From Gammaproteobacteria bacterium (lineage in GTDB: Bacteria; Pseudomonadota; Gammaproteobacteria; GCA-001735895), in contig JBNKDE010000014.1 of NCBI GenBank assembly GCA_050288105.1, forward strand, positions 10,539-74,538: a DNA stretch of 64,000 nucleotides, read 5' to 3'. This document shows positions 2,690 to 49,577 of this stretch, piece after piece. Position 1 is the stretch's first letter. Every line of letters starts with the position of its first letter. A program made the translations under genes and the position numbers. The notes beneath the pieces were generated by a model. It had not been told where the DNA came from, did no database searches, and saw nothing but the letters and a program-made list of their open reading frames with translations.

Positions 2690-3355
2690 TTACCAGCCAG
2701 GGGGAAGCTTTTTCTCAATGGTAATTTGCTTACCTTCGATGGAGATATAACCGCCGGTTTTTAACTCCTTAAGGATACGATGCACCATCTCTCGTGTTGC
2801 ACCCACACGCAATGCAATATCCTGTTGGGTCAGCTTTTCCGTTACCAGCTTATCGCCCACTTTTTCAGCGTGCTTATACAGAATCCTGACCACGCGGTTA
2901 TATACATCTTCCAGCGCCAGGCTACTGACTTCCTCGGTAAGATCCTGAATCAGGCTGATCAGACGATCAATAATGCGCATACTAATCGTTGGCTTGGTTA
3001 GCAGGGTATCCATAAAAACCTGGCGGGAGATTACTGCCATTATCGACTTTTCGGTAGTGATAATACTCGCCTGTCGGGGAATACCACCAAGAGGAGCCAG
3101 CTCACCAAAAGAATCACACTCGCCCAGCGAATTTATAATGATTTCCTTACCCTTCTCGTTTTGCAGAAAAACATCAACCTTACCGCTGATGATCACATAT
3201 AAAGAGTCCGTTTCATCACCCTGGGTTACGACAACGGTATTTTTGGGATATTCTCGTGTAACAACCTGAGTTGCAATATGTTCAAGATCTTTCTGATCCA
3301 ATCCCTCAAATAATGAGTTATTTTTAAATGTTTCAATTACTTCATTCATTGTCAA
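2690..3355 (-). CDS. Crp/Fnr-family transcriptional regulator (cNMP-binding domain plus C-terminal HTH)
   Basis: 221 aa with a cNMP-binding beta-roll (FGELA...RQASI) and a C-terminal HTH (TQQDIALRVGATREMVHRILKEL). It lacks the Fnr-type N-terminal Cys cluster. Confidence 0.85.
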   Translation of the reverse strand: MTMNEVIETFKNNSLFEGLDQKDLEHIATQVVTREYPKNTVVVTQGDETDSLYVIISGKVDVFLQNEKGKEIIINSLGECDSFGELAPLGGIPRQASIITTEKSIMAVISRQVFMDTLLTKPTISMRIIDRLISLIQDLTEEVSSLALEDVYNRVVRILYKHAEKVGDKLVTEKLTQQDIALRVGATREMVHRILKELKTGGYISIEGKQITIEKKLPPGW

Positions 3356-3423
3356 GGATACCTGTAATAGTGAATCGAGAAACCATCGACCACTTTTTTA
3401 ATTTTTAGTATGTAACTATCAGG

Positions 3424-4968
3424 TCAGCCAGAATACTTTTCCAGTAACAGAGAGGTACCTTTCATCTCTTCCGGCTGAGCTATACCCATTAATTGTAGTA
3501 GAGTTGGCGCAATAGCAGACAAATTTTCTCCTGTTGTCAGGCGCCATGGTACTTCATCAATGACCAGACAGGGAACAGGATAGATCGTATGCTGAGTATG
3601 CGGCTCTCCGGTTACAGGGTCGACCATTTCATCACAGTTACCATGATCAGCGGTCAATATAACGGAATAACCCTCTTCTACCGCTACGTCCAGAACCCGT
3701 CCAACCTCTTTATCCAGAGTTTCTACTGCTTTTATCACCGCGTCGCGTACGGCAGTATGTCCGACCATATCACCATTCGCAAAGTTCACTACCAGAAAGC
3801 TGTAATCGTGCGATTTTAATGCCACGATCATTTCATCTGCTACCTTCTCAGCACTCATTTCCGGCATTAAATCGTAGGTAGAGACGTCAGGGGACTGGAT
3901 CATATTCCGATCCTCACCTGGAAAGCGATGCTCGCGTCCACCGTTAAAGAAAAATGTCACATGTGCATATTTCTCTGTTTCTGCGCAATGAAACTGCTTA
4001 AAACCGGACTGACTGATAATACTACCCAGTGTTACTTTGGGCCGCTCAGGAGGATAGGCAATAGGTGTCAGGAACTCGGGATCATATTGCGTCATACAGG
4101 TAACCGTAATCGGCTCATAATCGCCACGATCAAAACAGCTGAACTCACCATGACTCAACGCGGCTGTTAACTGGCGCGAGCGGTCATTACGAAAGTTAAA
4201 AAAGATCAGCTCATCACCTTTTTTAACAGGGATAAAATCTGGCATCACGGTGGGCTTGATAAACTCATCGGTTTCACCTGCTTCGTAGGCATCGTGCAAG
4301 GCCAGGGTGATATTTTTAGCCTGATTGCCTTCTCCGTGCACCATTGCTCGCCAGGACAGTTCGGTGCGATTCCAGCGGCGATCTCTATCCATTGCATAAT
4401 AGCGACCATGTAAAGTGCCGATGACCCCGCCATATTCGGAAAGCGCCAGCTCCAGATCGTGTAAAAAACTCATCGCAGACTTTGGCGGTGTATCACGCCC
4501 ATCGGTAATCAGGTGTACCTGAGGCAATACCCCATGCATAGAGCACAGCTTAATCAGCGCCAGCAGATGATTCAGATGGCTGTGCACCCCGCCATCAGAA
4601 ACCAGCCCTATCAGGTGTAACGGCCGCTCCGATTTCCTGGCATGATCAATCGCCGACAAAAAGGCAGGGTTGGAAAAAAAGCTTCCTTCTTTGATCGCAT
4701 CATCAATACGAACCAGATCCTGCTTTACAATCGACCCACAACCAATCGTCATATGGCCTACTTCTGAATTTCCCATTTGTCCTACTGGCAACCCCACCCC
4801 ACGGCCTGAGGCCTCAAGTGCGGTATGTGGATAGGAGGAAAAATAACGGTCCAGGTTGGGTGTATTAGCTTCGATTACCGCATTATTCACCTTGCTTGGA
4901 TTCAAGCCGAATCCATCCATGATAATTAAAACGGCTGGTCTACGCGGGACGGATCTCGCTTCTGGCAT
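3424..4968 (-). CDS. gpmI: 2,3-bisphosphoglycerate-independent phosphoglycerate mutase
   Basis: 514 aa with iPGM motifs (ILDGFG-like IMDGFG, NSEVGH, DGGVHSH, ADHGN). Confidence 0.95.
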   Translation of the reverse strand: MPEARSVPRRPAVLIIMDGFGLNPSKVNNAVIEANTPNLDRYFSSYPHTALEASGRGVGLPVGQMGNSEVGHMTIGCGSIVKQDLVRIDDAIKEGSFFSNPAFLSAIDHARKSERPLHLIGLVSDGGVHSHLNHLLALIKLCSMHGVLPQVHLITDGRDTPPKSAMSFLHDLELALSEYGGVIGTLHGRYYAMDRDRRWNRTELSWRAMVHGEGNQAKNITLALHDAYEAGETDEFIKPTVMPDFIPVKKGDELIFFNFRNDRSRQLTAALSHGEFSCFDRGDYEPITVTCMTQYDPEFLTPIAYPPERPKVTLGSIISQSGFKQFHCAETEKYAHVTFFFNGGREHRFPGEDRNMIQSPDVSTYDLMPEMSAEKVADEMIVALKSHDYSFLVVNFANGDMVGHTAVRDAVIKAVETLDKEVGRVLDVAVEEGYSVILTADHGNCDEMVDPVTGEPHTQHTIYPVPCLVIDEVPWRLTTGENLSAIAPTLLQLMGIAQPEEMKGTSLLLEKYSG

Positions 4969-13159: not shown

Positions 13160-14100
13160 GAAACAATCCCGATCATGGCATTAGTACTTTCAACCAGCGC
13201 CTGCGCGATACCCGGTTCAGATGCAGCATGGCCAGCATCCGGTATGATTTTTAGCTGGCTTTCCGGCCATTGTGCATTTAATGCGTAAGCCTGATCGATC
13301 GGGCAGATCGCATCATAGCGGCCATGCACGATGAATCCAGGGATATGGCTAATGCGATCCATATTGTCGAGCAACTGGTTCTCCTGCAAAAAACCCCGGT
13401 TGATGAAGTAATGGCACTCTATGCGCGCAATACTCAACGCCATATGCGGATCAGCAAAATAATCCAGCACCTGACCATTTGGACGCAGCGTTGCAGTGCT
13501 ACCCTCCCATATCGACCAGGCTTTGGCCGAAGCCATACGCTCCAGCTCATTATCACTGGTCAAACGACGGTGATAAGCAGCAATCATATCTTGCCTCTCC
13601 TGCTCAGGAATCGGTTGTAAAAATGCATCCCAGGCGTCAGGAAATAACCTGGAAGTTCCATATTCATAAAGCCAGCTGAGATCCTGTTGCCGACATAAAA
13701 ATATACCGCGTAAAACCATGCCCAGCACCCTGTCCGGGTGAGATTGTGCATACGCCAGCGCCAGTGTAGAACCCCAGGATCCACCGAATAAAACCCATTT
13801 TTCAATCCCCAGTTTCTGGCGGATTTTTTCCATATCATCGATTAGGTGCTGGGTTGTATTCTGATGCAGGCTGGCATGCGGACGGGATTTCCCACATCCA
13901 CGTTGATCAAACAGGATAATCCGGTATTTCTCAGGATCAAAAAAACGCCTGTGCACAGCCTCGCAGCATGCACCTGGACCACCATGCAGAAAAATGACAG
14001 GTATACCAGCGGCATTACCGCACAGCTCTATATAGAGCTCGTGCTGGCTGGAAACCTGCAAATAAAAATGGCTATCAGGCTGGATCGCAGGGAAAAGCAT
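13156..14100 (-). CDS. pip: Prolyl aminopeptidase (proline iminopeptidase)
   Basis: 314 aa with HGGPG, DQRGCGKS and GGSWGSTL (Ser nucleophile) motifs. Confidence 0.9.
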   Translation of the reverse strand: MLFPAIQPDSHFYLQVSSQHELYIELCGNAAGIPVIFLHGGPGACCEAVHRRFFDPEKYRIILFDQRGCGKSRPHASLHQNTTQHLIDDMEKIRQKLGIEKWVLFGGSWGSTLALAYAQSHPDRVLGMVLRGIFLCRQQDLSWLYEYGTSRLFPDAWDAFLQPIPEQERQDMIAAYHRRLTSDNELERMASAKAWSIWEGSTATLRPNGQVLDYFADPHMALSIARIECHYFINRGFLQENQLLDNMDRISHIPGFIVHGRYDAICPIDQAYALNAQWPESQLKIIPDAGHAASEPGIAQALVESTNAMIGIVS

Positions 14101-14113
14101 TCTTTATATTCCT

Positions 14114-14131
14114 TGTAGGATTAATCCTACA
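14114..14131. promoter_or_regulatory. Perfect 18-bp palindrome TGTAGGATTAATCCTACA; candidate GacA/UvrY upstream activating box
   Basis: I read this directly from the sequence. It matches the TGTAAG-N6-CTTACA box of rsmY/rsmZ/csrB promoters with one symmetric substitution per half-site. It lies about 55-60 bp upstream of the first GGA motif of the adjacent sRNA candidate and 14 bp from the pip start codon. Confidence 0.6.
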
Positions 14132-14182
14132 TAATCTATCTATACCCACCGACAAAAACAGAGGTAATCGACACTATATCCA

Positions 14183-14360
14183 GGGGATATTGCATGCGAT
14201 CATAGCGTCACGTTCTAGGGATAGAGCCCAAAAGGAGTTTCACCGCCGTAGCAGGATTGCTCGATAAGGATGGCACTATCTCAAGGATGTTAAATTAAGT
14301 CAATCACAGGCCAGGATGGCCATAAAGCCTCGATCAGGGATTTGATTGAGGCTTTTTTTT
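14183..14360 (+). ncRNA. Csr/Rsm-family (RsmY/RsmZ/CsrB-like) CsrA-sequestering small RNA candidate; 5' end approximate (+/-15 nt)
   Basis: A non-coding gap of about 175 nt holds 8 GGA motifs, mostly in A/CAGGAU-like contexts (14185, 14219, 14234, 14254, 14268, 14285, 14314, 14338). The last one lies in the loop of a strong intrinsic terminator. A GacA-type palindrome lies upstream. No ORF is present. Confidence 0.65.
14325..14360 (+). terminator. Rho-independent terminator (3' end of the sRNA candidate)
   Basis: The stem is AAGCCTCGATC / GATTGAGGCTT (11 bp with one G-U), the loop is AGGGATTT, and a T-run follows to 14360. Confidence 0.8.
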
Positions 14361-14409
14361 GCCTGCAATAACCCCTATTATCCCGGGCATCCCGAAAAGT
14401 GAAAATAAC

Positions 14410-15156
14410 ATGCCCACTCAACCTCCAAAAAAACTGTTACACCCGGTAGGAAAAGCCATCGCCGATTTCAGCATGATTAGAGACCATGATCGAATCCTGC
14501 TTGGTTTATCTGGTGGTAAAGATTCGTTATCCCTGTTACACATCCTGATGCATTTCCAGCGGCACGCGCCCATCAGTTTTGAAGTAGGTGCTGTAACCAT
14601 AGACCCGCAAAGTGATGACTTTGACCCCTCTCCGTTAATCGGCTACCTGAAATCACTGGAAGTGGACTATCACTTCGTCAGTGAGCCCGTGGTGAGGCTT
14701 GCTGAAGAGCATATGAAAAAAGATTCATTCTGCGCTTTCTGTTCCCGTATGCGCAGAGGGCTGATGTATAAAACAGCGCGCGCGAATGGATATAACGTCA
14801 TCGCCCTGGGCCAGCATCTGGATGACTTATGCGAAAGCTTTTTAATGTCAGCGCTGCACGGTGGACGACTGAAAACAATGAAAGCACATTATATTAACGA
14901 TGATGAAGATCTGAGGATAATTCGACCACTGGTCTACGCGCGTGAGCGCCAGCTCAGGGATTTTGCAACCCGCGCTGAATTACCCGTTATCGAAGATAAC
15001 TGCCCAGCCTGTTTCGCCAAACCTACCCAGCGCCAGCATATGAAGGAATTGCTGGCTGCGCAGGAAGCGGACTATCCAAACACCTTTAAAACCCTGCTTT
15101 CAACCATCCGCCCGTTAATGAGGGAAGGGTTACCAGCCCAGCTCAGTGAACAATAA
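14410..15156 (+). CDS. ttcA: tRNA 2-thiocytidine(32) synthetase TtcA
   Basis: PP-loop SGGKDS and CxxC pairs (CAFCSRMRRG, CPAC). I chose the ATG at 14410. The track's TTG start at 14359 would lie inside the terminator T-run. Confidence 0.9.
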   Translation: MPTQPPKKLLHPVGKAIADFSMIRDHDRILLGLSGGKDSLSLLHILMHFQRHAPISFEVGAVTIDPQSDDFDPSPLIGYLKSLEVDYHFVSEPVVRLAEEHMKKDSFCAFCSRMRRGLMYKTARANGYNVIALGQHLDDLCESFLMSALHGGRLKTMKAHYINDDEDLRIIRPLVYARERQLRDFATRAELPVIEDNCPACFAKPTQRQHMKELLAAQEADYPNTFKTLLSTIRPLMREGLPAQLSEQ

Positions 15157-40452: not shown

Positions 40453-41586
40453 ATGGTTAAGGTACCTGGTCGCCTGATGGAGTCGTGGCAGGATCCTTCA
40501 TCCCAGCCTTATGTTCAGTTAAAACGGGTCACCCGTCAGTATGGTGACCTGTATGCGGTAGACGATGTCAGCCTGGATATCTACCAGGGTGAATTTTTTT
40601 CCTTACTGGGCAGCTCGGGTTGCGGCAAGTCGACGCTATTACGCATGCTTGCCGGACTTGAGATGCCGACCAGTGGACGTATTCTGATCGATGGGGTGGA
40701 CGTCACCGATGTGCCCCCCTATCGTCGCCCGGTAAATATGATGTTCCAGTCCTATGCGCTGTTTCCACACATGTCGGTGGAAAACAATATTGCGTTTGGC
40801 CTGAAGCAGGAAAAACTCTCTGCCGATGAGCGTAAAGAGCGCATTGAACAGATGCTCAAGCTGCTGCACATTGAGCCTTTGCGTCAACGCCGACCGGATC
40901 AGTTATCGGGAGGACAAAAACAACGCGTGGCCCTCGCCAGAAGCCTGGCCAAGCATCCCAAGCTGCTGTTGCTGGATGAGCCGCTGGGTGCACTGGATAA
41001 ACGCCTGCGTGAAAACACCCAGTTTGAGCTGGTCAACCTGCAGGAAAAACTGGGCATTACCTTTATCACGGTCACGCATGATCAGGAAGAGGCGATGACC
41101 ATGTCCTCGCGTATCGCCGTTATGCACGATGGGCATATCGTACAGGTGGATACACCATCTGGAATTTATGAATATCCCAACTCGCGATTCGTGGCCGGCT
41201 TTGTCGGCTCGATCAATCTGTTTGAAGGCAAGGTCATCGAGCGTAACGATGCAGAAGCGATCATCGAAGGTGCGGACGGTGAACAGTATCATATGCACTG
41301 CCTGCAACCACTGGCGCTGGGTTCACCAGTTGTGGTTGCGGTACGGCCAGAAAAAATTCGGCTCGCGCGCGAGGCTAACGACAGCGCAGTAAACCAGATC
41401 AGGGGTCGCGTAGAAGACATCGCCTACCTGGGTGATGTTTCCATCTTCCACCTCAAAACTGCCTCCGGGCGCAAGCTACAGATGACTCTTACCAATACCC
41501 GTCCAATCATCGAACAAACCCTGACCTGGGGTGAGCAAGTAGTGGTTGAATGGGACCCTGATGGTGGCGTGGTGCTAACCGAATGA
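40453..41586 (+). CDS. potG: Polyamine ABC transporter ATP-binding protein
   Basis: Walker A GSSGCGKST, signature LSGGQKQR, Walker B LLLLDEP, and a C-terminal TOBE-like domain. Confidence 0.92.
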   Translation: MVKVPGRLMESWQDPSSQPYVQLKRVTRQYGDLYAVDDVSLDIYQGEFFSLLGSSGCGKSTLLRMLAGLEMPTSGRILIDGVDVTDVPPYRRPVNMMFQSYALFPHMSVENNIAFGLKQEKLSADERKERIEQMLKLLHIEPLRQRRPDQLSGGQKQRVALARSLAKHPKLLLLDEPLGALDKRLRENTQFELVNLQEKLGITFITVTHDQEEAMTMSSRIAVMHDGHIVQVDTPSGIYEYPNSRFVAGFVGSINLFEGKVIERNDAEAIIEGADGEQYHMHCLQPLALGSPVVVAVRPEKIRLAREANDSAVNQIRGRVEDIAYLGDVSIFHLKTASGRKLQMTLTNTRPIIEQTLTWGEQVVVEWDPDGGVVLTE

Positions 41587-42506
41587 AGCTGAATCTGCAC
41601 ACTCTGCAGGACAGACTTTCCAGCGGCTGGGGACGCCGAATCAGCATAGGGTTACCTTATCTGTGGCTGGGTATTTTATTCCTGTTGCCTTTCCTGATTG
41701 TGCTGAAGATCAGTCTGGCTGAACCCATGCTCAACCAGCCGCCCTATACGCCGCTAACCACCCTGAGCGATGATTCCGTATTACAGATCAATATCAACCT
41801 GGGCAATTATGTACTGCTGAGCGAAGACCCACTCTACCTGGATGCCTTTATTAATTCGCTACGCGTGGCCGCCATCAGCACCCTGCTCTGCCTGCTTATC
41901 GGATATCCGATGGCGTACACCATTGCCACCGTCAAACAGAGCTGGCGTAATATCCTGCTAATGATGATTATCCTGCCTTTCTGGACCTCATTCCTGATCC
42001 GTGTCTACGCCTGGATTGGTATCCTTAAGCCGCAGGGCATACTCAATGATTTACTGCTGGCGCTAGGTGTCATTAACCATCCGCTGGCGATACTGCACAC
42101 CCAGCTCGCAGTTTACATCGGCATAGTATATTCCTATCTTCCGTTTATGATCCTTCCGCTGTACGCCAACCTGGCGAAGCTCGATCACAGCCTGCTGGAG
42201 GCTTCTGCAGATCTTGGTGCGCGCCCACTCACATCGTTTTTGCGTATCACTTTTCCGCTCTCTCTACCCGGAGTCATCGCGGGAAGCATGCTGGTTTTTA
42301 TCCCTGCGGTTGGCGAGTTTGTTATCCCGGACCTGCTGGGCGGGCCGGATAGCCTGATGGTAGGAAAGTTGATGTGGACTGAGTTTTTCTCCAATAAGGA
42401 CTGGCCGCTGGCATCCGCGCTGGCGATCTGCATATTGTTCCTGCTGGTAATCCCGTTTATCGCAATGCAGCGTCTGCACCAGCGATTCGAGGACAAATCC
42501 ATATGA
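41583..42506 (+). CDS. potH: Polyamine ABC transporter permease
   Basis: 307 aa with 6 TM helices and the EAA loop (EASADLGARPLTSFLRITFPL). It overlaps the upstream gene by 4 nt. Confidence 0.9.
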   Translation: MKLNLHTLQDRLSSGWGRRISIGLPYLWLGILFLLPFLIVLKISLAEPMLNQPPYTPLTTLSDDSVLQININLGNYVLLSEDPLYLDAFINSLRVAAISTLLCLLIGYPMAYTIATVKQSWRNILLMMIILPFWTSFLIRVYAWIGILKPQGILNDLLLALGVINHPLAILHTQLAVYIGIVYSYLPFMILPLYANLAKLDHSLLEASADLGARPLTSFLRITFPLSLPGVIAGSMLVFIPAVGEFVIPDLLGGPDSLMVGKLMWTEFFSNKDWPLASALAICILFLLVIPFIAMQRLHQRFEDKSI

Positions 42507-45806: not shown

Positions 45807-48800
45807 ATGATTCAAAAACTGGTTCTTCTCAAAGCACTGCTAACTGCGGCCCTGGCATTAAGTGGCCTGCTGCTTTACGTTCCTGTCAGCCTCGCTCAGC
45901 AGGCTGAAAATACTGCTTTAAGAGAGGTCACTTTACAGCTGCTGTGGAAACACCAGTTTGAGTTTGCCGGATTCTATGCGGCAAAAGAGAAAGGTTTTTA
46001 CCAGGCTGCCGGCCTCAAGGTCAACATTCAACCCTTTATTCCCGGCGCAGACGCACCGATAAAAAAGGTTATTGATGGACAGGCGGACTTCGCTGTGGGT
46101 GATTCAACCCTTATCGTCAATCGCGCCAAAGGAGCTCCAGTAAAACTGCTGGCCAATATCTTCCAGCATAGCCCTTACGTGTTACTTACCCTGGCCGATT
46201 CAGGCATTCATTCACCAGCTCAAATGGTCGGCAAAAAAATTATGCTCGCCAAGCATGAAGAGTCTAATGCCGAGATTAAAGCCATGCTGGCCTCCGAGTC
46301 AGTTAGCCTGGACCAGATGCAGGTCATTGAACACAGCTTCCAGGTAGATTCATTAATCAATGGTGATGTGGATATCATGTCTGCATACGCATCCAATGAA
46401 CCGGCTGTTTTAAAGCAAAAGGGCATCAGATTTAACGTCATTAATCCACTCAACTATGGTATCGATTTTTACGGCAATAATATCTACACCAGTGAGCAAC
46501 TTGAGCAAAAAGACCCTGCATTAGCCGAAGCCTTTACGCTGGCGAGCCTCAGGGGCTGGCAGTACGCACTACAACATAAGGAAGAAATGATAGAGCTTAT
46601 CCTGCAGAAATATTCGCAGGAAAAATCCATTGAAGCACTTAAGTTTGAAGCCGATGCGATTGAACAATTCATTCTGCCTGATTACATTCCCATCGGCGAG
46701 GTAAACCTGGATCGCCTGCAGAGAATTGCCGACGTCTACAAACATCTGGGGGCTATTCCAAAAGATTTTTCACCTAAAGAAATTCTGAGTGAAAATATCC
46801 AGCAAGAGCAAAAGTTAAATTTAAGCTTGACTGAAAAACAGTGGATCAGCGAACATCGCAGCGTTGTCATTGGCGTAGACCCTGACTGGGCACCCTTTGA
46901 ATTTATCGACGAGGATGGCAATTATTCCGGTATGGCCTCTGAATATATCAAGCTGGTTTCTCAAAGAACCGGCCTGATATTTAAGGTACAGGATAATGAA
47001 ACCTGGCTAGATGTCATTAATAGTGCCAAAGCGGGCAAACTCGACCTGCTCCCCGCCATTAGCTGGTCTGCACAACGAAGTAACTACCTGAATTTTACCA
47101 GCCCGCATATGAGCTATCCCATGGTGATTTTAACCAATAAGGAAAGCGAGTTTATCAGCCAGATTGAGTCACTGGATGGTAAAAAAGTGGTTGTAGTCGA
47201 TGGCTATGTAACCGAGGAATTGTTACGCAGCAAACATCCGAATATTGAGTTAATAGAAGCAAAGAATATCAACCAGGCGCTGGACATACTTTCTTCGAAT
47301 GATGCCGATGCCTACATTGATAACCTGGCCAGCATTACCTACAGCGTGAATAAACGTGGCATAAACAATCTGCGTATATCAGGCACCACACCTTATGAAT
47401 TCTCACTGGGGTTTGCGGTTATTAAAAAGAATGATCAATTATTTAGTATATTGCAGAAAGCCATTAACTCAATAACTGACCAGGAACATCAGGCCATCCG
47501 CAACAAATGGATTAACCTGCGTGCTGAATCAGCCTTTCCTGTAGGAACCATACTGGAAATCACAGCAATTGCTGCATCGTTCCTGCTTATCATGCTGTTC
47601 TGGAACCGAAAACTCTCCGCAGAGGTTAAGCGCAGGAAAATTTTTGAAAAAGAGCTTGCTTCCAAGGAAAAAAGATTTCGCGAATTATTTGAAAATAACA
47701 AGGCAATAGAGTTAATTATTGACCCGCAAAGCGGGGTCATAGTCGATGCAAACAATGCTGCACTAGCTTACTATGGCTACTCTAAAGAAGAGATAAAACA
47801 GCAGAATATTACCGACATTAATACGCTGTCAAAGCAGCAGACACTGGCTCAGAGCAAACTGGCAGAGCTGCAGAAACAATCACATTTTTTCTTTAAACAT
47901 CGATTAAAAAATGGCGAGATAAGAGACGTTGAAATTCATTCTGGACCCATTAACTGGGATGGAAAACAGTTACTCTACTCGATTATTCATGACATTACTG
48001 ACCGGGTTATCGCTGAAAACGCCTTGATCAAGGCAAAGGCCGAAGCAGAGAAAGCCACACGTGTTAAGAGTGAATTCCTGGCTAATATGAGCCATGAATT
48101 ACGCACCCCCATGAATAGCGTCATTGGTATGACTGAACTGCTTATCGAAACCGATCTAGACCAGGAGCAGAAAAAGATGCTGGAGATTATTCAAAGCTCC
48201 GGCAAGGTTTTAATTTCAACGATTAACGACATCCTGGACTTTTCCAAACTGGAAGCGCAGCGTATGGAAATCGACCCACAGCTGTTTGAACTTAAGCCTT
48301 TTATCCAGGATATGTTCGAAACCATGCGTAGCCTGGCGAGGCAAAAGCCGCTCGAGCTGTTACTTGAATGCGACAATCAATGTGATGTGCTGATGTACTG
48401 CGACGAAACCAAACTGCGCCAGATTCTCACCAATCTGGTTAGCAATGCAATCAAGTTTACTCCGCAGGGGTCAGTTACCCTGAAAGTCAGCCGCAAAAGC
48501 ATTGATAACACACAGGCAAGCTTTCAGTTTCAGGTGATCGATACAGGTATCGGCATTTTCAGGGAACAGGTCGATCACCTGTTTGATTCCTTTACCCAGG
48601 CTGAGCAATCAACAACCCGGCAGTTTGGCGGAACCGGACTAGGGCTGGCGATCAGTAAAAAACTCAGCACTCTGCTTGGTGGCGATATCCAGGTCCAGTC
48701 CAGCCCTGGAAAAGGTTCCTGCTTCACGCTCACCATAGATACCGTTTACAGGCTGTCAACACCCGCGCAGCCAACACAGCAACAGCTGACGTCTCAGGCA

Positions 48801-49577
48801 GAACCTGCGAAAAGACAAAGCTTTAATGCCCAGATACTGGTGGCAGAGGATGTATTACCCAACCGCATCCTGGTTCAGAAAATGCTGGAGAAATTCGCGC
48901 TGAGCTGTGAGTTTGCGGAAAATGGGCAGGAAGCGGTTGAGTTGTTCAAAGCCCGCCACTACGACCTGATCCTGATGGATTGCCAGATGCCTATTCTGGA
49001 TGGTTATAGCGCCACAGAATTGATCAGAAAAATCGACCCCAAAATCCCGATTCTTGCACTAACAGCCAATGTCATGCGGGAAGACCGTGAAAAGGCTCTG
49101 GCCTGCGGAATGAATGATGTCATCACCAAACCGATACAGATAGACACACTGGGACAGTACCTGAATCAGTGGCTGGAGAATTACAAGATACCGCAAACCG
49201 ATGCCGAGCAAGCACAGGAGCAGGCTGCACAGCAGGCCCTGGACAATTTAATCGATTATCAGCAGCTGGATAAATTCAAACAGGATCTGGAAGAAGATTT
49301 TGCCGAAATTTTCCACGCAATCCTGTCCAGTATTCCCTCAATGATTGATGAACTTGCCGAGCAAACACAGGATACAGAAGCATTAACCCGTCTGTTTCAT
49401 AGCCTGAAATCACCCGCCGCCTCTATCGGCGCGATGGAATTATCCAGACTCGCAGAGAAATACGAATTGCAGTTGAAAAACAATCAGTTGCAGGATCTGT
49501 CGATTCCCATTCAATTGCTACGTGACCAGTTCAATGCGGTGAAAAAAGAACTGAAAGATTACCCTGTCAATGCCTGA
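45807..49577 (+). CDS. Hybrid sensor histidine kinase: signal/TM, NMT1/THI5-like binding domain, SBP_bac_3 (PBPb) domain, TM, PAS, HisKA, HATPase, REC, HPt
   Basis: 1256 aa with the H-box [14 protein letters not shown], the G-box [11 protein letters not shown], the REC domain ILVAEDV...LILMDCQMP, and the HPt domain [12 protein letters not shown]. Two periplasmic binding-protein folds precede the TM helix, giving a BvgS/EvgS-like logic. Confidence 0.9.

Follow-up and report, generated by a model that had tools for sequence, protein, structure and literature searches.

The window, a 64-kb stretch of contig from an uncultured marine gammaproteobacterial lineage, contains between pip and ttcA a gap in which we predict a gene for a small RNA (sRNA). 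The predicted gene is a plus-strand one, flanked by pip, which is encoded on the minus strand with its ATG at 14098-14100, and by ttcA. On the pip side it is preceded by a palindromic box of the type associated with the regulators GacA and UvrY, and it contains a run of GGA motifs and ends in an intrinsic terminator (Table 1). An earlier sequence-only reading of this DNA had described the gap as free of open reading frames (ORFs), and no plus-strand ORF of at least 30 amino acids is found within 14119-14358. For background counts, the window was extended with 10 kb fetched past each end, giving 84 kb of contig in total.

Relatives of the locus were gathered by scanning genomes with Pip as the query, and extra contigs by a metagenome scan with the conserved core pattern. 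In the genome scan, Pip identity to the window was 81-82% for L001-L003 and 69-73% for L004-L006 and L068, and the scan also reached lineages further away, Sedimenticolaceae among them. L001-L006 and L068, the seven closest relatives, share the gene order trkH-ttcA-(gap)-pip-dtd, and the gap in each of them is homologous to the pip-ttcA gap of the window. Eight contigs added by the scan of marine metagenomes brought the set to 13 distinct homologous sequences. With the covariance model R1, the interval 14187-14362 of the window scores 194.6 bits and the homologues score 170-203 bits. A search of the window with R1 found no second copy of the sRNA, and neither another box nor another GGA-dense region turned up in the 20 kb of extra contig. 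Contig names in the set (e.g. SI039, NIOZ-UU) suggest a possible origin in low-oxygen marine water columns.

The GacA/UvrY-type box and the putative sRNA promoter

The palindrome TGTAGGATTAATCCTACA occurs once in the window, 13 nt from the pip ATG and 54 nt ahead of the first GGA, and it is perfect over 18 bp, as the sequence-only reading had it. Its right half-site, CCTACA, is fixed in all 13 homologues, and its left half-site, TGTAGG, is present in every homologue that covers it save L082 (CGTAGG). The 6-nt spacer is free to vary, with ATTAAT, ATTTAC, ATTATC, ATTTGC, ACGCGG, ACAAAT and AAAAAT all represented. Because the half-sites stay fixed while the six central bases vary, we read this pattern as the signature of a site for a dimeric protein. 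CRP (16 bp), lux box (20 bp) and NarL 7-2-7 sites were set aside, as their spacing or orientation does not fit the palindrome, whereas the 18-bp GacA geometry does. The GacA/UvrY consensus is TGTAAG-N6-CTTACA (PMC4682653, PMC3171408, PMC8523701). The window pattern TGTAGG-N6-CCTACA agrees with this consensus at 10 of 12 positions, and the single symmetric change per half-site that had been pointed out earlier is confirmed, with a relative that carries a hybrid of the two forms described below. Two UvrY/GacA-type sites are reported to have half-sites of the TGTAGG form: in E. coli csrB such a half-site adjoins the UvrY site (PMC4682653), and Marinomonas csrA1 has one in a GacA-like box that lies upstream of the gene (PMC8523701).

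Downstream of the box, as far as the RNA body, the only conserved features are a -35-like and a -10-like hexamer. The first of these reads CCTACA or CTGACA in relatives, while the T-A core of the second, CACTAT, is invariant in an 8-sequence alignment. Conservation of the RNA body picks up again ~10-15 nt 3' of the -10-like hexamer. From the position of this hexamer and the resumed conservation downstream, we infer that transcription would start near 14184-14187, which would place the centre of the box at about -62. A strict promoter scan did not call CCGACA-17-CACTAT. In eight of the 13 members (L004, L005, L006, L068, L083, L085, L088 and L089) the -35-like hexamer repeats the half-site CCTACA exactly, as a third copy that starts 17 nt past the box; the same position reads CCTACG in L082, CCGACA in the window and CTGACA in L001-L003. 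By analogy, CCTACA at this position may be an extra half-site for the regulator, and in E. coli partial half-sites have been noted beside the UvrY sites of both csrB and csrC (PMC4682653).

GGA motifs, predicted fold and terminator

Within 14183-14360 (plus strand, 178 nt) there are eight GGA motifs, at 14185, 14219, 14234, 14254, 14268, 14285, 14314 and 14338. The mean for the plus strand of the window is 2.1 per 178 nt (standard deviation 1.5), and eight or more are reached in 0.2% of intervals of this length. GGAT occurs seven times in these 178 nt (window mean 0.78) and A(N)GGA/AGGA 10 times (window mean 1.0); for both motifs the sRNA region ranks first on both strands of the 64 kb, and it still does once the 20 kb of flanking contig is added. 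In shuffles that keep the RNA's own composition, 3.2 motifs are expected against seven observed (~2.3-fold, p ~0.02). The sequence-only reading had counted eight GGA motifs in the RNA, and all eight are present, but the GGGGAU at 14185 is conserved in no relative and lies at or just past the likely transcription start, at the edge of the transcript, which leaves seven motifs for the RNA. Second to the sRNA region in A(N)GGA density within the window comes a stretch at ~41975-42170 on the minus strand, with 8 per 180 nt, antisense within the ORFs 41583-42506 and 40453-41586; codon composition probably accounts for this cluster.

Across the 13 distinct homologues, four of the seven GGA positions are fully invariant. 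A fifth is kept in all members with an alignment offset of one column (the alignment at motif 2 was shifted by one column in the window row), and the sixth and seventh are kept in 12 of 13 and 8 of 13. The bases that flank the motifs change, as in CAGGAU/CAGGAC/CAGGAA and UCAGGGAU/UCAAGGAC/UCACGGAU. GGA columns are more often invariant than the remaining columns (Fisher p = 0.014), and the alignment argues for selection on the GGA motifs themselves. Conservation of the GGA pattern and of the palindrome half-sites had been proposed as a check on the sRNA, and both are kept in the 13 distinct homologues and also in relatives that cannot be aligned with them.

The predicted fold of the sRNA region is more stable than that of shuffled sequences (z = -3.5). 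The consensus fold comprises a long-range helix, an internal region that exposes motifs 2-4, the UUAAGUCAAUC block, and the motif-6 hairpin followed by the terminator. Motif 5, like motif 1, has an unpaired probability of ~0. For motifs 2-4 this probability is 0.3-0.95. In the small hairpin of motif 3, eight of the 13 members have GGA in the loop, and the remainder have GGG or UGG. The motif-6 hairpin is a classic CsrA-type site in the predicted fold, and its stem shows a compensatory change from GGCC/GGCC to GACC/GGTC (3 versus 10 sequences), giving the general form GRCC-AGGAY-GGYC. The stem of the terminator has 14 pairs when its A-U ends are counted, with the loop GGGA and an unpaired probability of ~1.0 for motif 7. 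Both the stem and the GGA in its loop are invariant in the 13 homologues, while the flanks within the loop vary. A strong terminator with a GGA in its loop, as well as exposure of the GGA motifs on folding, had been anticipated by the sequence-only reading; the terminator is present as described, and in the predicted fold five of the seven conserved GGAs are unpaired, mainly or in part. The terminator also bears on the start of ttcA. The GenBank call for this gene (265 amino acids) begins at TTG 14359, within the T-run of the terminator, and translation from ATG 14410 would give 248 amino acids, with the PP-loop domain beginning at residue 29 of this shorter form. The ATG, which had been preferred earlier, is the more plausible of the two.

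Table 1 Features of the predicted sRNA gene in the pip-ttcA gap (positions in the window; folds are consensus predictions).
Feature	Position	Strand	Remarks
Perfect 18-bp palindrome TGTAGGATTAATCCTACA	14114-14131	.	GacA/UvrY-type upstream activating box, TGTAGG-N6-CCTACA variant
-35-like hexamer CCGACA	14149-14154	+	putative; position conserved in alignment
-10-like hexamer CACTAT	14172-14177	+	putative; 17 nt after CCGACA
sRNA, ~175 nt (predicted)	~14186-14362	+	putative 5' end; 3' end at terminator T-run; R1 match
Long-range helix, 5' arm, with GGA motif 1 (14219-14221, paired)	14210-14228	+	consensus fold; motif unpaired probability ~0
GGA motif 2 (AAAGGA), internal loop	14234-14236	+	in 13/13 members; unpaired probability 0.34-0.93
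Hairpin AGC-AGGAUU-GCU, GGA motif 3 (14254-14256) in loop	14250-14261	+	stem invariant
GGA motif 4 (UAAGGAUGG), single-stranded, adjoining helix	14268-14270	+	GGA in 12/13; unpaired probability 0.75-0.95 in most
Long-range helix, 3' arm: invariant block GGCACUAUCUCA with GGA motif 5 (14285-14287, paired)	14272-14290	+	consensus fold
Single-stranded block UUAAGUCAAUC	14295-14305	+	invariant in 13 members; minus strand holds the -35-like TTGACT
Hairpin GGCC-AGGAU-GGCC, GGA motif 6 in loop	14309-14321	+	unpaired probability ~1.0; GGA invariant
Intrinsic terminator, GGA motif 7 (14338-14340) in loop	14324-14362	+	stem 14324-14355, then T8

Linkage of the box to the RNA in distant relatives

Three more distant relatives carry the box and a GGA-rich RNA in other arrangements. 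In L036 (Pip 60%), the box TGTAGGAAAAATCCTACA is followed by a GGA-rich RNA with a GGA in its terminator loop, and the box is ~170 nt from pip, still in the pip-ttcA interval. L026, a complete chromosome of a metagenome-assembled genome (MAG; OZ246012.1), has two tandem GGA-rich units at 3280-3910 on the minus strand, each behind a box of the TGTAGG...CCTACA type (TGTAGGACAAATCCTACA and an imperfect second one). Both units lie on the sRNA strand and copy 1 is terminated, and the gene that follows them, in place of ttcA, encodes a CI-like S24 repressor. Model R1 ties copy 1 to the window family (E ~7e-4), and sub-threshold Rfam matches were obtained for copy 1 to RsmY (24.6 bits, E 7e-4; gathering threshold 57) and for copy 2 to PrrB_RsmZ (19.1 bits; threshold 44). 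In L018, at 3020-3253 on the minus strand, the hybrid box TGTAAGAATCATCCTACA (TGTAAG...CCTACA) precedes a GGA-rich, terminated RNA. Here an unrelated ORF separates the box and RNA from pip, and unrelated small ORFs follow the RNA. By its sequence, the hybrid box links the TGTAGG/CCTACA variant to the canonical GacA box. Just past the L018 terminator there is a further CCTACA half-site with more GGA, a possible second unit at ~2880-2990.

Across 80 loci and the window, every match to TGTRRG-N6-CYYACA precedes 8-12 A(N)GGA per 300 nt on one strand, with 1-4 per 300 nt on the opposite strand beside the same matches. The RNAs of L036, L018 and L026 cannot be aligned with the window family, and they keep the GGA density and the box and lack the UUAAGUCAAUC 11-mer. 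Because the distance from pip, the downstream gene and the copy number all differ in these three relatives, we assign the box to the GGA-rich RNA, and not to pip or ttcA. What this comparison of sequences indicates to be maintained over evolutionary distance is the combination of box, GGA richness and terminator, rather than a particular sequence. The sponge RNAs of the Csr/Rsm systems are known to evolve in this way, keeping box, GGA richness and terminator instead of sequence. A shorter GGA-rich stretch (CGGAUG, CAAGGAC, CAGGGAGGAG, CAAGGAC) lies upstream of pip in L007, a Sedimenticolaceae MAG, at 3720-3920 on the minus strand. A terminator with a GGA in the loop closes the stretch, which has only a CCTACA half-site ahead of it; from its sequence it may be a diverged homologue.

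Interpretation, rival explanations and known systems

Kulkarni et al. 2006 (PMC1488887) listed five defining sequence features of CsrA-regulating sRNAs: an intergenic position, a high density of AGGA/ARGGA, a rho-independent terminator, GGA in loops or free regions, and a UvrY/GacA site conserved upstream. The window locus has all five, with the AGGA/ARGGA density judged against the 84 kb of contig and GGA exposure taken from the predicted fold. At gathering thresholds, a scan of the whole window and 16 related loci with Rfam gave no match. The sequence-only reading had proposed Rfam covariance models of the class as a check on its claim, and here the check gave nothing: the CsrB, CsrC, RsmX, RsmY and PrrB_RsmZ models do not match the interval 13950-14500 at E <= 10. 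Because the class features are present and the Rfam models are unmatched, we classify the RNA, by sequence, as a new family inside a known functional class, outside the curated Rfam families.

We consider it likely that the pip-ttcA gap encodes an independent plus-strand sRNA of ~175 nt that belongs to the CsrB/RsmY/RsmZ functional class, titrates CsrA and is governed by a GacA/UvrY-type box. The same identity, a Csr/Rsm sponge sRNA with a GacA-type box, had been put forward in the sequence-only reading, and it gains support from the conservation, the GGA exposure, the linkage of box and RNA and the class features. In the proposed mechanism, a phosphorylated GacA/UvrY-type regulator would bind the TGTAGG-N6-CCTACA box, with its centre ~62 bp upstream of the start, and activate the weak sigma-70-type promoter CCGACA-17-CACTAT. 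The transcript, judged from the sequence, would stop at the strong intrinsic terminator. The RNA is predicted to display seven conserved GGA motifs with four or five of them exposed, two in hairpin loops including that of the terminator, one in the loop of a 3-bp hairpin, and two in unpaired stretches. These motifs would bind and titrate CsrA/RsmA dimers, and CsrA control of target mRNAs would be relieved.

Several results weigh against this interpretation. Neither csrA nor gacA/uvrY nor a clear gacS was found in the 84 kb of contig. When the window and 91 loci were searched by tblastn with E. coli CsrA, P. aeruginosa RsmA and GacA, only generic receiver domains were found, and NCBIfam scans of response-regulator-sized and large ORFs gave no UvrY or GacA. 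The absence of a match to the Csr/Rsm models counts on the same side. Relative to the RNA's own composition, GGA is enriched only ~2.3-fold, and with one GGA per 25 nt the RNA is among the less dense of the Csr/Rsm class. Motifs 1 and 5 are predicted to be sequestered in the long helix. Structural covariation is thin, with double changes at three pairs and a slight signal, in one column, for the long-range helix; the family is too conserved, and the helix remains a prediction supported by energy instead of covariation. A single copy was seen here, fewer than in the many species with two or more. Finally, part of the sequence conservation could stem from a promoter on the opposite strand, which is described below. 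CsrA and the BarA/UvrY (GacS/GacA) systems are well conserved in gammaproteobacteria (PMC3171408, PMC5109040), and by analogy we expect csrA and a Gac system to be present in the host genome. A hybrid histidine kinase of 1256 amino acids with a receiver domain is encoded at 45807-49577 on the plus strand. The top NCBIfam model is BarA (402 bits; cutoff 890), closely followed by TorS, LuxQ and ArcB, and at a score so far under the BarA cutoff the kinase cannot be called GacS/BarA.

The promoter scan found a promoter-like site on the minus strand within the sRNA gene, TTGACT (14303-14298) followed after 17 nt by the extended -10 element TGaGATAGT (-10 at 14280-14275). Its hexamers coincide with two invariant non-GGA blocks, GGCACTATCTCA and TTAAGTCAATC, and in all 13 members the hexamers are invariant and the spacer length is fixed, while the spacer bases vary. 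From its sequence, this site may be the promoter of pip. If so, transcription would start near 14268 and give a 5' untranslated region (UTR) of ~168 nt, antisense to nucleotides 1-82 of the sRNA and reading through the GacA-type box. The pip mRNA and the sRNA would then overlap head-to-head by ~80 nt, and expression of pip-dtd would be coupled to the Gac-type input. A further step, which we hold to be unlikely, would be a bidirectional module in which the pip-dtd promoter (minus strand, 14303-14275) is embedded in the sRNA gene and GacA binding or sRNA transcription directly represses pip-dtd. Such repression would take the form of a roadblock, of transcriptional interference or of antisense pairing, with the sRNA titrating CsrA at the same time. 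The RNA would then be a dual-function Csr sRNA with dual-coded invariant non-GGA blocks.

The same promoter-like site underlies a rival explanation, in which the conservation mainly reflects a pip promoter and 5' UTR on the minus strand, the palindrome is a pip operator, and the plus-strand GGA motifs are incidental. The good minus-strand site does fall exactly on the two invariant non-GGA blocks, and in the window and its close relatives the palindrome is 13 nt from the pip ATG. However, the strong terminator is a plus-strand feature, with T8 on that side only and no plus-strand ORF ahead of it, and GGA motifs are conserved outside the promoter hexamers. In L036, L018 and L026 the box holds its distance to the GGA-rich RNA and not to pip, and L026 has a tandem duplication of the units. 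We therefore regard this explanation as highly improbable as a replacement for the sRNA, with which a pip promoter can coexist. Least probable of all, and only barely credible, is a cis-acting role as leader or attenuator of ttcA, with transcription from the putative sRNA promoter and a terminator that regulates read-through into the gene. The terminator does end 48 nt ahead of the ttcA ATG (14410), and ttcA lies downstream in the window, in L001-L006, in L068 and in L036. Yet the folds show no alternative anti-terminator pairing, no Rfam leader or riboswitch reaches threshold, and the stretch from terminator to ttcA varies from ~50 to ~180 nt in length, its sequence not being conserved beyond the closest relatives. 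The downstream genes in L026 (CI-like repressor) and L018 (unrelated small ORFs) are different ones.

The locus could also encode a genuine sRNA that is no CsrA sponge, controlled by another NarL/LuxR-family regulator or an unrelated dimeric one and acting by base-pairing or through a different protein, e.g. via UUAAGUCAAUC. We think this quite improbable, if less so than either cis-acting explanation. The missing Rfam Csr/Rsm match, the one-position departure of the half-site and the moderate GGA excess are all in keeping with it, and CsrA binding does not explain an invariant, unpaired 11-nt block that lacks GGA. The invariant blocks are otherwise explicable by the opposite-strand promoter, however, and the non-alignable relatives retain the GGA density and the box and lack the 11-mer. 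Conservation takes the form of GGA fixed at 5-7 sites with variable flanks, instead of longer seed-like blocks. The hybrid canonical/variant box of L018 and the known occurrence of TGTAGG half-sites at UvrY/GacA-type sites (PMC4682653, PMC8523701) likewise favour a Gac-type regulator over another one.

If the Csr/Rsm interpretation is correct, it would place a global post-transcriptional switch of the Gac/Csr type in an uncultured marine gammaproteobacterial lineage. It would also provide a new covariance model for annotation, from 13 or more sequences of which none is in Rfam, and document TGTAGG/CCTACA as a natural variant of the GacA/UvrY half-site. The mechanism itself is textbook, and the novelty is an uncatalogued family of a familiar regulator, with no new mechanism, which is useful to a specialist and not surprising.

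Among known systems, the RsmY, RsmZ and RsmX RNAs of Pseudomonas (RF00195, RF00166 and RF02144; clan CL00106) resemble the window RNA in being short (100-180 nt) and intergenic, with ~7 GGA motifs of which several are in hairpin loops, and in carrying a GGA in or beside the terminator hairpin. They also share an 18-bp palindromic activating sequence, TGTAAG-N6-CTTACA, near the promoter (PMC4353343, PMC2375449), whereas the half-sites in the window are TGTAGG/CCTACA. The window RNA is ~50 nt longer, has a lower GGA density and is predicted to form a long-range helix that hides two GGAs. Weak matches to the RsmY and RsmZ models come from the distant relative L026, and the window locus itself gives none that is significant. 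The CsrB and CsrC RNAs of Enterobacteria, Vibrio, Shewanella and Marinomonas (RF00018, RF00084) show no sequence or model similarity to the window locus, and CsrB differs in its length of 360-420 nt and its 16-22 sites (PMC1488887). The E. coli repeat has its centre near -183 and requires IHF (PMC4682653), in contrast to the position of about -62 that we propose for the window box. The likeness to CsrB and CsrC is one of functional class, with the same five features (PMC1488887), and of an upstream 18-nt inverted repeat, which is bound by UvrY in those systems (PMC4682653). The E. coli csrB promoter is noted to carry a partial half-site, TGTAGGAGA (PMC4682653), and tandem or multiple copies like those of L026 also occur in Shewanella and Vibrio (PMC3171408, PMC1488887).

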